The position numbers were made by a program, and so were the translations under genes. From Dehalococcoidia bacterium (GTDB taxonomy: Bacteria; Chloroflexota; Dehalococcoidia; UBA2979), in NCBI GenBank assembly GCA_965247925.1, contig CBDFIB010000004.1, forward strand, positions 1,701,697-1,765,696: a stretch of DNA of 64,000 nt, given 5' to 3'. Below are positions 28,923 through 31,513 of the stretch, one piece after another. Position 1 is the first letter of the stretch, and every line of letters begins with the position of its first letter. Under the pieces are notes generated by a model. It was not told the DNA's origin and did no database searches. It saw only the letters and a program-made list of their open reading frames with translations.

Positions 28923-29792
28923 ATGCCCCTGAAGCTCTCGACATGCCTGCTCGCGGCCATCGTCGTGCTCGCGACGGCAATCGAGGCGCCGAGGGCGCGT
29001 GCACAGGCACCGCCCAACGTGATGACGCTCAACCTCGGCGACGCGCGGGCGGTCTGGGTCCAGGACGCCGCCGGTGGATTCCACCCGTACATCTTCGGGG
29101 CGCCCGCGTTCGTCAACGCATCGTTCGTCAGCCGTTGGGTCAGCGACGGAACGCAGCCCGCGACAGGGGTGGCTCTCAACCTCGGCGGCGCGCGGTCGGT
29201 GTGGGTTCAGGACACGGCCCGTGAATTCCACTCCTACATCATTGGCGCGCCTGCATTCGTCAACGCGTCGTTCGCCGAGCACTGGATCATTGACGGGCCG
29301 TTCTTCGTGCAACCACCGACGACCCCGGTCGACCTGAGGCTCGCGAAAGTCGACATCCCGTTCGACTTTGACGACATCTGGGTCACGTGGGATGCGGTGC
29401 CGGGCGCGACCTGGTACGAGGTCTATCACTCAACGGGCGGGGAGTTCGACTTCGAGCACAGCGTCACGGACACTGGCTACCTCGACCAATACCCCAATAT
29501 CGTGCCCGGGCTCCTCGACTCCTACAAAGTTCGAGCATGCAATGCTGCTGGCTGCTCGGACCTTAGCTCGAGTGCCACGGAGACCGCGGGCAGCCTCATT
29601 TCGGCCCTCTCGATCGTCGGCGAAACCTTGGCGGACCTCGTCGGGTTCGACCTCAACGAAGCCTGCGGCCAGTTGCTTCGCGGTGCCGTCGACCTCTTCA
29701 TCACAAGTTTCCTGCCGCCCTTGGCGCCACTCCCTGGATTGATCGGTGAACTGATTGGGCCAACGGTCGCGGAAGAGCTAGCAGGCTGCTGA
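28923..29792 (+). CDS. Secreted protein with two tandem ~45-aa repeats and a fibronectin type III domain
   Basis: It has a signal peptide ending ARA-Q, two copies of LNLG.AR.VWVQD....FH.YI.GAPAFVNASF...W, and the FN3 pattern VTWDAVPGATWYEVY...Y.D......YKVRACNAAGCSDLS. The stop codon lies inside the MITE terminal repeat. Confidence 0.75.
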   Translation: MPLKLSTCLLAAIVVLATAIEAPRARAQAPPNVMTLNLGDARAVWVQDAAGGFHPYIFGAPAFVNASFVSRWVSDGTQPATGVALNLGGARSVWVQDTAREFHSYIIGAPAFVNASFAEHWIIDGPFFVQPPTTPVDLRLAKVDIPFDFDDIWVTWDAVPGATWYEVYHSTGGEFDFEHSVTDTGYLDQYPNIVPGLLDSYKVRACNAAGCSDLSSSATETAGSLISALSIVGETLADLVGFDLNEACGQLLRGAVDLFITSFLPPLAPLPGLIGELIGPTVAEELAGC

Positions 29793-30032
29793 AAAAGTCC
29801 GCGGCGGCGCTTTTGGGCTGAAATCGCGCTGGCCGCGACATCAAGAAACCCAATGTTTCTGGGCTCTACGCCAGCCCACCGAATGGCCAGTGAGACCCTA
29901 CGGCTCAGGATCAGGACTTTTTCAGATGGGATGAGGGCTGGTCTCCTCCTCAAGGGGATACTCGTCCCCGGTAAGCGGCCTCGAATCGGGCCCAGAACGG
30001 CTTCTCAGAGCCAGAGAGGTAGAAGACCAGCC

Positions 30033-31127
30033 ATGCAGCAGCATATCGCAACGGCAGAGCGCGTTGAACGGGAGGAAGCCAGCGGAGTCACCTGGGGCCT
30101 CGATGTGAGCGACCGTCACACCCAGATCTGCGTGCTCGGCCCCGCCGGGGACGTGCAGCGCGAGCAGCGCGTCCGCACGACGGCCCTCGCGCTGAGGCGA
30201 GCGCTCGGGGAGCTGCCGGCGGCACGGGCGGTGCTGGAGGCGGGACGGCACTCGCCGTGGCTGAGCCGGCTGCTGACCGAACTCGGTCACGAGGTGATTG
30301 TCGCCAACCCCCGCCAGGTAGCGCTGATCGCACGCAGCCACCGCAAGGACGACCGCAGCGACGCCGAGCAACTGGCACGGCTGGGTCGCCTCGACCCCAA
30401 GCTGCTCGCCCCGATCCGTCACCGCAGCGCGCAGGCCCAGCAGGATCTCGCGGTCGTGCGCGGCCGCGACGCGCTCGTGCGCTCGCGGACGCAGCTCATC
30501 AACCACGTGCGCGGCGCCGTCAAGGCGTGGGGCGCCGCGCTGCCGAAGGTGACCGCGCCAGCCTTCCATCGCAAGGCAGCGGAGCACATCCCGGCTGAAC
30601 TGCGCACCGCACTGCTGCCGCTGCTCGAGGTGATTGGCGAGCTCAGCGCCCGCATCGCCGCCGCCGGCCGGGAGGTCGAGGCGCTGTGCGCGGCCTACCC
30701 CGAGACCGCCGCGCTCCGCCAGGTCGCAGGCGTCGGTCCCATCACCGCCCTCACCTTCGTGCTGACGATCGAGGATCCCGCGCGCTTTCCCCGCAGCCGC
30801 GAGGTCGCACCCTACCTCGGCCTCGTGCCCAGGCGTCGCGACTCCGGCGGCCGCCACACGCAACTGGGGATCACCAAACGTGGCGACTCCCACCTGAGGC
30901 GGCTGCTCGTGCAGGCCGCGCAGTACGTCCTCGGACCGTTCGGACCAGACTGCGACTTGCGCCGCTGGGGCGAGCGCTACATGGCCTCGGGAGCGGGGAA
31001 CGCGAAGAAGCGCGCGGTCGTCGCCGTGGCGCGACGCCTCGCAGTGTTGCTGCACGCGCTCTGGCGCAGCGGCGAGGTCTATGAGCCGCTGCGCCAGGCC
31101 GCCACGGCGGAGGGGGAGGCTGCGTAG
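30033..31127 (+). CDS. IS110-family DEDD transposase/recombinase
   Basis: The RuvC-like DEDD motifs are GLDVS, VLEAG and KDDRSDA. The C-terminal domain has VAGVGPITA, YLGLVPRRRDSGG (catalytic Ser), GITKRGD..LR.LL and AVVAVARRL. Confidence 0.95.
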   Translation: MQQHIATAERVEREEASGVTWGLDVSDRHTQICVLGPAGDVQREQRVRTTALALRRALGELPAARAVLEAGRHSPWLSRLLTELGHEVIVANPRQVALIARSHRKDDRSDAEQLARLGRLDPKLLAPIRHRSAQAQQDLAVVRGRDALVRSRTQLINHVRGAVKAWGAALPKVTAPAFHRKAAEHIPAELRTALLPLLEVIGELSARIAAAGREVEALCAAYPETAALRQVAGVGPITALTFVLTIEDPARFPRSREVAPYLGLVPRRRDSGGRHTQLGITKRGDSHLRRLLVQAAQYVLGPFGPDCDLRRWGERYMASGAGNAKKRAVVAVARRLAVLLHALWRSGEVYEPLRQAATAEGEAA

Positions 31128-31173
31128 CGGGCGACGGGAAGACGGCGAACCACCACCAGACGACCACCAACGG

Positions 31174-31354
31174 CTGCACCGTGATGCTGAAGACCGGGCG
31201 ACTGCGACAGGCTGCTGGTCCACCCAAGGACGCTTTTCAGCTGGCAGCGCCCCCTGCAAGCAGGTTCCCCATCATGCACCGGGTCCAGAAGCGCGACCCC
31301 TCGGCGAGTGCGGATAGAAGCGGGGCACAGGTCACCATCCGGCATGGCGTGCAG
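31174..31354 (+). ncRNA. Predicted bridge/seek RNA of the IS1111-type element
   Basis: A closing stem (CTGCAC/GTGCAG, ATGCTG/CGGCAT, GACC/GGTC) encloses two internal loops. The target loop carries CAGGCTGCT (31208-16) and TTTTCAG (31234-40). The donor loop carries CCCATC (31268-73) and ATAGAAG (31314-20). Boundaries are approximate. Confidence 0.8.
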
Positions 31355-31513
31355 ACGGAGCGGCCACCACGTTGGCCGACTTGCAGATCGGACCAGCCCT
31401 CATAGAAGCAGCCTGCTAGGCTGCCAGTAGACTCCCTCGCCTGTGGACGGCCTGTTGAACGGGGGCGCGGGGGGCTACACTGGGGCACATCCCCGGAGAG
31501 GCGCGCTGACGCC

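Follow-up and report, generated by a model that had tools for sequence, protein, structure and literature searches.

What is an insertion sequence (IS) doing inside the terminal inverted repeat (TIR) of another mobile element, how does it find such a place, and what follows for the element that is hit? These questions are raised by a locus in a stretch of 64,000 nucleotides from a Dehalococcoidia bacterium (assembly GCA_965247925.1, contig CBDFIB010000004.1, positions 1,701,697 to 1,765,696; in the following called the window). Here an IS of 1483 bp, which we name IS1, splits one TIR of a 151-bp miniature inverted-repeat transposable element (MITE). The host genome (G000) is a 3.48-Mb assembly in four contigs with 70% G+C, in which the copies of the IS were counted by BLAST. 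We regard it as highly probable that IS1 is an IS1111-family element, which uses a DEDD recombinase together with a guide RNA from its 3' non-coding region (NCR) and targets the TIR tip common to the MITE and to an IS of the same genome, named IS-A.

The original prediction, which was made from the letters of the window, described the order CTAG, MITE, AG, IS, AG, CAGCCTG, CTAG. This order is borne out and all positions could be confirmed (Table 1), and with them the nesting of the IS in the TIR of the MITE. If IS1, which contains one of the two AG copies, is excised in silico, the 151-bp element with its perfect 19-bp TIRs is obtained, which is also what had been described. The 19-mer of the TIR occurs once in the window, where chance would give none. 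Since the 2-bp AG core is common to both junctions, the boundaries 29926-31408 and 29924-31406 are equivalent readings. The second one follows the convention for IS1111 elements, by which AG belongs to the left terminus, and results in terminal extensions of 7 bp (AGATGGG) and 3 bp (AGA).

Table 1. Positions of the features of the nested locus within the window.
Feature	Position	Strand	Basis or remark
Left CTAG target-site duplication of the MITE	29778-29781	.	Sequence read and position check
First 144 bp of the MITE	29782-29925	+	Includes left TIR and inner 12 bp of right TIR
Left TIR of the MITE, CAGGCTGCTGAAAAAGTCC	29782-29800		Sequence read and position check
Inner 12 bp of right TIR, GGACTTTTTCAG	29914-29925		Sequence read and position check
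IS1 (IS1111-family IS), 1483 bp, start ATGGGATGAGGG, end CCCTCATAGAAG	29926-31408	+	
Left subterminal inverted repeat, ATGAGGGCTGGTC, 13 bp	29931-29943	+	Perfect reverse complement of 31391-31403
DEDD transposase gene, 364 amino acids from first ATG, motif GLVPRRRDSG	30033-31127	+	Pfam, NCBIfam
Predicted target-binding module of seekRNA/bridge RNA	31196-31252	+	Consensus structure, 10 relatives
Stem of this module, GGGCGACUGC paired with GCAGCGCCC	31196-31205 with 31244-31252		Predicted; internal loop topped by hairpin 31218-31231
5' guide, CAGGCTGCTG	31208-31217	+	Reverse complement of target top strand CAGCAGCCTG
3' guide, TTTTCAGC	31234-31241	+	Same as target top strand, complementary to bottom strand
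Candidate donor-end module	31268-31320	+	Two end-matching segments around conserved stem
CCCATC in donor-end module	31268-31273		Reverse complement of GATGGG at left end of IS1; support weak
ATAGAAG in donor-end module	31314-31320		Equals last 7 nt of right end of IS1
Right subterminal inverted repeat, GACCAGCCCTCAT, 13 bp	31391-31403	+	13/13 match to left repeat
Outer 7 bp of right TIR of the MITE, CAGCCTG, cut off by IS1	31409-31415	+	
Right CTAG target-site duplication of the MITE	31416-31419	.	

The assignment of IS1 to the IS1111 family, which belongs to the IS110 family of ISfinder, had also been proposed and is supported by several traits. The N-terminal part of the transposase (residues 22-164) matches the RuvC-like domain PF01548, DEDD_Tnp_IS110, with 66.7 bits and an E-value of 2.6e-18, and the C-terminal part matches PF02371 with 82.6 bits and an E-value of 2.6e-23. 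The protein reaches 234.8 bits with the NCBIfam model NF033542 (cutoff 140). As far as the available text of a study on the family goes (PMC11187229), IS1111 transposases carry a C-terminal PF02371 domain with the motif GL-P----S(t)G, to which the sequence GLVPRRRDSG fits. The similarity to the recombinase structures of ISCro4 and IS621 is weak (E-values of 3e-7 and 4e-6) and is confined to the C-terminal domain. The 364 amino acids (aa) of the protein compare to 330-350 aa stated for the family in the same text (PMC11187229). As the alignment to NF033542 spans residues 22-348, the true start may lie downstream of the first ATG. Asymmetric terminal extensions of 7 bp on the left and 3 bp on the right are likewise described there (PMC11187229); with AG assigned to the left, IS1 has exactly these lengths, and in its siblings the extensions measure 7-8 bp and 3 bp. 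A further trait of the family are subterminal inverted repeats of about 11-13 bp with few or no mismatches, and those of IS1 agree at all 13 positions. The non-coding parts of IS1 comprise 281 nt 3' of the transposase gene (tnp) versus 107 nt 5' of it. The DEDD domain, the subterminal repeats, the extensions, the long 3' NCR, the order of the guides described below and the use of one target in one orientation thus all agree, and by these features IS1 is a member of the IS1111 family.

The 151-bp element itself is, as supposed, a multicopy MITE with a YTAR duplication. About 90 copies are present in the genome, of which 61 are empty and full-length, 27 contain IS1 and two contain IS2-type elements (see below). 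The empty copies are flanked by CTAG on both sides in 41 of the 61 cases, by CTAA on both sides in two and by TTAG on both sides in one, which is consistent with a 4-bp YTAR duplication. The MITE is non-coding. Its two TIRs match at all 19 positions in the window copy and at 17 of the 19 in the prevailing form, in which the left TIR reads CAGGGTGATGAAAAAGTCC (69 copies) and the right TIR, read inwards, CAGGCTGCTGAAAAAC[TC]CC (62 copies). Perfect TIRs are therefore atypical among the copies of this MITE. The left TIR in the window had been proposed as a second, still empty perfect target for the IS. This is true of the window copy, the left TIR of which contains an intact TTTTCAGCAGCCTG target on the minus strand, but it does not extend to the family: the window copy is one of six in the genome with an intact left end of this kind (CAGGCTGCTG), and in most copies the left TIR deviates at two positions, of which one is in the core.

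The MITE is mobile, as can be seen from an empty allele of the locus. Contigs from two other studies (X5 and X6, one contig each) lack both the MITE and the IS, and a single CTAG is left in their place. In the X6 contig (depth 3.8) the gap amounts to exactly 1638 bp, the sum of 4, 151 and 1483. In the X5 contig (depth 20) the 22 letters past the joint are identical to window positions 31420-31441 at 19 of 22 places. Both depths are low. Among the assembled contigs neither a circle junction of the IS nor a MITE allele of this locus free of the IS was seen.

The search with the whole element revealed 33 long matches in the genome, which are made up of 27 copies of IS1, five copies of a sibling named IS2 and one degenerate IS2-like copy. 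The copies of IS1 are 95.8-100% identical, most of them 100%. It had been suggested to check whether every copy lies at the same position of the TIR, and in this genome all 27 do: the junctions read TTTTTCAG-IS-CAGCCTG throughout and in a single orientation, with 20 copies in the right end and seven in the left end of a MITE. A true target duplication is not formed; the AG core of 2 bp is all that is found at both junctions of each of the 27 copies.

Identical junctions and nearly identical copies could also have a historical reason, namely that all copies go back to a single MITE::IS composite, which was multiplied as a whole either by duplication or through the IS5-family transposase. In nine of the 27 copies a further element, the IS1182-family IS-B, even forms an additional common flank. 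However, the inner 144-nt MITE flanks of the 27 IS1 copies comprise 26 distinct sequences, from both ends of the MITE, and this indicates independent insertions rather than copies of one composite. In 18 of the 27 cases the sequence beyond CTAG is ordinary and unique, and a MITE with a split TIR should in any case be no substrate for the transposase. Furthermore, IS1 carries matches to both strands of its site, and relatives with other guides are found at other sites. The single composite was rejected because of the 26 distinct flanks, and amplification as a unit is very unlikely.

The selectivity for a defined site is illustrated by the sites which are still free. Intact TTTTCAGCAGCCTG is present in 76 copies genome-wide, 62 of them at MITE right ends, six at MITE left ends, six at IS-A ends and two elsewhere. 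A variant, TTTTCATCACCCTG, which differs at the G of the core and at one flank base, happens to be present in 76 copies as well. Occupied are 27 of the 103 competent sites versus none of the 76 variant sites (Fisher p = 6.7e-8). Nor is there any insertion in this genome at the 13 sites that deviate by one base and read CACCCTG (p = 0.04). One might regard the variant left TIR, CAGGGTGATG, as an escape of the MITE from the IS. This was rejected, because the variant is also found in MITEs of two congeneric genomes which have no IS1-type element, at both ends of two MITE copies in G004 and at the right end, which is the end recovered, of one copy in G016. Judged from these few copies, the variant looks ancestral.

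The prediction had placed the MITE with an IS5/IS1182-like family, and in IS-A the genome has a candidate partner, which is of the IS5 family and has the TIR tip of the MITE. IS-A is about 1.26-1.31 kb long and bounded by the TIRs CAGGCTGCTGAAGAAGCGC and CAGG[CG]TGCTGAAAAAGGGG; nine clean TIR pairs were found and 12 BLAST matches, including one fragment. The DUF772 and DDE_Tnp_1 domains are read as two open reading frames (ORFs) of 246 and 115 aa, and the best NCBIfam match is the IS5 family model NF033581 with 153.9 bits (cutoff 140). IS-A has the first 12-16 nt of the TIR in common with the MITE, that is the TIR tip alone, and one copy is flanked by TTAG and CTAG. Ten of the 12 copies are empty. 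One contains an intact IS2 inside its GAAGAAGCGC end, and one contains a decayed IS1-like relic at the other kind of IS-A end, located between IS-B and IS-A (C4:2131779-2132884). The relic shows 85% identity over most of its length and 96% in the part of the left end. The left tip of the relic and the inner portion of the TIR of this IS-A copy were removed by deletion.

We also looked for both elements in 18 congeners, for which matches and not copy numbers are given. IS1-type DNA with at least 96% identity was found in three of them (G012, G013, G015). The MITE is present in five (G004, G012, G013, G015, G016) with one to three matches each, versus about 90 copies in the genome under study. 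In G015 two IS1 copies, which are 96% identical and have the same guides, are inserted at GCGCTTCTTC^AGCAGCC in an IS-A-like end, in line with the postulated role of a cognate IS5-type element. In G013 one IS1 copy, again with the same guides, is located in the end of a MITE. IS1 in an IS-A-like end of one genome and in a MITE end of another indicates that the cognate target is the TIR tip of the IS5-type family, and in the genome under study the MITE is the supplier of most copies of this target.

The targeting of IS1 is very probably RNA-guided, as the original prediction had it, to judge from the guide matches and from the covariation of guides and sites among relatives. Two segments of the 3' NCR match the target, one over 10 nt as reverse complement and one over 8 nt in the same sense; they are 16 nt apart and overlap in the target at CAGC. 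The complement of the top strand comes first, which corresponds to the published order. In the text available for this family (PMC11187229), the seekRNA is located downstream of tnp and the complement of the top strand precedes that of the bottom strand. In an alignment of 10 relatives the predicted stem and a GUCC...GGAC hairpin are invariant, and the two guide segments are the variable columns. IS2 has GCGACCTGCT and GGCAGAGA at the aligned guide positions, and these fit its own sites GGCAG^AGCAGGTCG. The same pattern with other sequences is seen in the guide/site pairs of L009/L010, L011-L013, L016, L017, L019 and L066.

Guides and sites vary together across nine lineages, in which the summed longest guide matches average 14.2 nt for the own site versus 7.2 nt for non-cognate sites. 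The maximum of the latter is 12 nt and is reached by pairs which have a target half or a guide in common. The ends of the relatives were set by motif after end-finding by exact inverted repeats had failed for most of them, and relatives for which both ends were not found were dropped before the count (L007, L008, L014, L018, L021, L022, L023, L045, L049, L050, L059). A second module of the RNA may match the ends of the element itself. Its right-end segment reads ATGGAAG in L016 and L050, the right ends of both of which read CTCATGGAAG (...CATGGAAG). A covariation of the segment CCCATC with the left ends of relatives was inspected by eye and was unconvincing.

Several observations weigh against an RNA-guided, site-specific IS1. 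The guide RNA is a prediction from the sequence. The single-sequence fold of positions 31190-31335 is not better than that of shuffled sequences (z = 0.28; the fold of 110 of the 200 shuffles is equally good or better), and compensatory changes are seen in five of 31 consensus pairs, with a covariation term of -0.16 kcal/mol. The predicted structure hence rests on conservation and not on covariation. The guides fit poorly in L015 (6+4 nt), in L006 (5 nt for the T guide) and in L019, in which the B guide needs a G:U wobble. In G012 a truncated, near-identical copy of IS1 adjoins CACCCTG with one guide mismatch, so that one mismatch may be tolerated. Intact IS1 is found at none of the six IS-A ends of the genome under study which offer a perfect target. 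Two of the five complete copies of IS2 lie at the TIR target of IS1, one in a MITE end (C3:1007319-1008742) and one in an IS-A end (C4:1050846-1052269), as does the degenerate sixth copy (C4:998210-999516), and there the guides of IS2 match with 6+4 nt, which is background level. In Rfam 15, searched at a permissive threshold with positions 29700-31500, two matches at chance level (E-values of 1.9 and 9.9) and no bridge RNA or seekRNA family were found.

The first two of these points would also be in accordance with recognition by protein only, in which the TIR would be read by the transposase alone, with the matches in the NCR as carried-along remnants of the target or as coincidence. In contrast, near-identical proteins and RNA scaffolds with different loop segments are found at sites that match just those segments. 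Moreover, the NCR-derived RNA is described as essential and reprogrammable for members of the family treated in the available text (PMC11187229), and the model NF033542, to which the transposase is assigned, bears the name 'IS110 family RNA-guided transposase'. Recognition by protein only is therefore extremely unlikely.

The position of IS2 at two kinds of sites can be looked at in more general terms. IS2 is 1532 bp long and 75.7% identical to IS1, and its five complete copies are 100% identical to each other. Three of them are found at matching sites, which are GGCAG^AGCAGGTCG in two cases and GGCAG^AGAGGTCGC in one (C4:504202, 1090261 and 1882003; L003), and the 3' guide GGCAGAGA fits the common part GGCAG^AG. 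IS1 and IS2 have the same last 12 nt at the right end, and their left ends are slightly different. The available text on IS1111 elements also mentions that the link between seekRNAs and closely related transposases is not a strict one (PMC11187229). The simplest account of the misplaced copies suggests that the guide RNA of IS1 may act in trans on the ends of IS2. IS2 at its own target and at that of IS1 would thus be a hint of a guide RNA that acts in trans between co-resident elements. If this is true, a pool of guide RNAs, and not each element alone, would decide on the target.

For IS1 itself we propose that insertion takes place site- and orientation-specifically at TTTTTC^AGCAGCCTG, the TIR tip of IS-A and of its 151-bp MITE derivative. 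The predicted RNA would consist of a conserved stem around an internal loop, both sides of which are variable. One side would pair with CAGCAGCCTG in the top strand of the target, the other with the stretch of the bottom strand that lies opposite TTTTCAGC. Both pairings would overlap at the AG core, which would be the point of strand exchange, and the second module of the RNA would match the ends of the element. According to this model TTTTTCAGCAGCCTG would be accepted and TTTTCATCACCCTG would not. A burst of the MITE would have led to about 100 target copies, of which IS1 would have filled about a quarter. The TIR may be a multicopy and mostly harmless landing site, as repetitive extragenic palindromes (REPs), attC sites and Tn21 TIRs are for relatives, and a side effect of its splitting would probably be that the MITE copy in question is disabled.

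The original prediction went one step further and saw in IS1 an RNA-guided brake on the IS5/MITE family, which is released by precise excision. In this reading such a regulation would be of relevance to the host or to the community of transposons. The insertion puts 1.5 kb between the outer 7 bp and the rest of the TIR and should block the recognition or cleavage of this end by a DDE transposase. From the way in which such transposases use their ends, we infer that an occupied MITE is very probably disabled. IS110-family elements are described to form circles with abutted ends in the text available (PMC11187229), and by analogy to the known excision in this family a precise excision of IS1 would restore the MITE. 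Of the about 90 copies of the MITE, 27 are occupied. IS-A is struck too, as one TIR contains IS2 and another one the decayed IS1-like relic, and the two IS1 copies of G015 are found in IS-A-like TIRs. On the other hand, 61 of the about 90 MITE copies and 10 of the 12 IS-A copies are intact, so that the source of the transposase is barely touched. About 90 MITE copies next to an abundant IS1, versus one to three matches in each of five sister genomes, are the opposite of a visible brake. As far as the sources report, REP, attC and TIR sites serve the known relatives as plain repeated and neutral sites. A brake in the sense of the prediction is thus unlikely, and any such effect, itself improbable, would be a by-product. 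It is likewise unlikely that IS1 is a hyperparasite which by means of a TIR-tuned guide RNA measurably and reversibly limits the IS5/MITE family, with a guide that may be shared in trans with IS2.

The insertion of an IS of this kind into the ends of another mobile element is not without precedent. IS1383 reportedly integrates into the inverted repeats of IS1384 in Pseudomonas putida H (Müller, Lauf and Herrmann, 2001). Going by this title, it resembles IS1 as an IS of the IS110/IS1111 lineage which has the inverted repeats of another IS as specific target. A second case are IS4321 and IS5075, which target the TIRs of the Tn21 family in the account available (PMC8269217). They have in common with IS1 the family, the subterminal repeats and, as far as described there, the insertion at one position and in one orientation into the TIR of another transposon. 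The hosts of these elements are Tn3-family transposons of Enterobacterales, whereas IS1 has as hosts the IS5-family IS and the 151-bp MITE of a Dehalococcoidia genome. The targets are unrelated in sequence, and IS1 is present with 27 copies in one chromosome set.

In Coxiella burnetii the founding element IS1111 is found in QMITE2 with 20 of 21 copies, so that there also a MITE is the multicopy target; this and the following details are taken from the part of the report that is available (PMC5896051). In QMITE2 the target lies in the interior, in a GTAG REP-like palindrome at a distance of 10-20 bp from one end, and the majority of the host copies are decayed. In contrast, IS1 targets the TIR tip, which the MITE has in common with an IS5-family element that looks live and autonomous, and its hosts are well preserved copies. 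With the seekRNAs of ISEc11, ISKpn4 and ISPa11 and with the bridge RNA of IS621, the predicted RNA of IS1 would share its origin from the NCR, the two strand-complementary segments that overlap at the core and a second module that matches the ends. Compared to these systems, that of IS1 has been read from DNA sequence only, and the similarity of its protein to ISCro4 and IS621 is weak.

In the literature on the IS1111 or IS110 family in connection with MITEs or inverted repeats no case from Chloroflexota was found among the titles and abstracts listed. The concept as such is known, as IS1111-type elements in the end repeats of transposons and in MITEs were described from 2001 to 2018 and RNA guidance in 2024, and IS1 is a new example of it. 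Its value is that of a natural experiment on specificity, with 27 independent insertions, with 76 perfect sites that are still empty and with zero insertions at 76 near-miss sites. In addition, in this uncultured Dehalococcoidia lineage the siblings form a series across the genus, in which one RNA scaffold with differing guides corresponds to differing sites. These pairs of guides and targets come from a high-GC organism and are usable for testing IS1111-type recombinases.

Some further observations concern the surroundings of the MITE and its relatives. IS-B is a 1.6-kb element of the IS1182 family with the TIR C[AT]GAGGCTGTCGCAC and a transposase of 460 aa, which is flanked by CTAG when it stands alone. 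It is found at C4:2130173-2131778 (L002) and in about 29 other copies, none of which lies within window positions 29778-31419. IS-B abuts the TIR tips of the MITE without CTAG in between (…CAGCCTG/CTGAGGCTG…) with 13 left ends and about 12 right ends, and this at either end of the MITE. These junction types are too many for one amplified composite. In G015 a different repeat (CTGATATGGAGTGCC…) abuts the same TIR tip.

A more distant relative with 52% protein identity was found in a metagenome-assembled genome of Bryobacterales (L019/L020, positions of about 620-2570), where it lies in or near the end of a small element with IS5-like ends. In L019 the ends of this host element are CAGGATGCTGAAAAAGGCC … TTTTTCAGCACCTG followed by CTAG, and the IS is located about 45 nt from the end, outside of the TIR proper. 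The T guide of L019/L020 matches the site GCCGCGACC. By its sequence this is a parallel nesting of an IS1111-type element in MITE-like DNA of another phylum. In two other loci, L006 (positions 2305-2760) and L066 (positions 1717-1850), two or three right-end segments (…GACCGTCCCTCATAGAAG) are arranged in tandem with a spacing of 60-320 nt. These tandem right ends may have been left behind when insertion took place repeatedly into an existing copy or beside it.

Upstream of IS1 an ORF of 289 aa (window positions 28923-29792, + strand) extends into the MITE and has its stop codon inside the left TIR. A Pfam search with this ORF gave no match. Its C-terminus reads ...ELAGC with the MITE, versus a predicted ...ELGCQ without it. 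The MITE swaps just the last few codons of the ORF, and its insertion was therefore nearly neutral.

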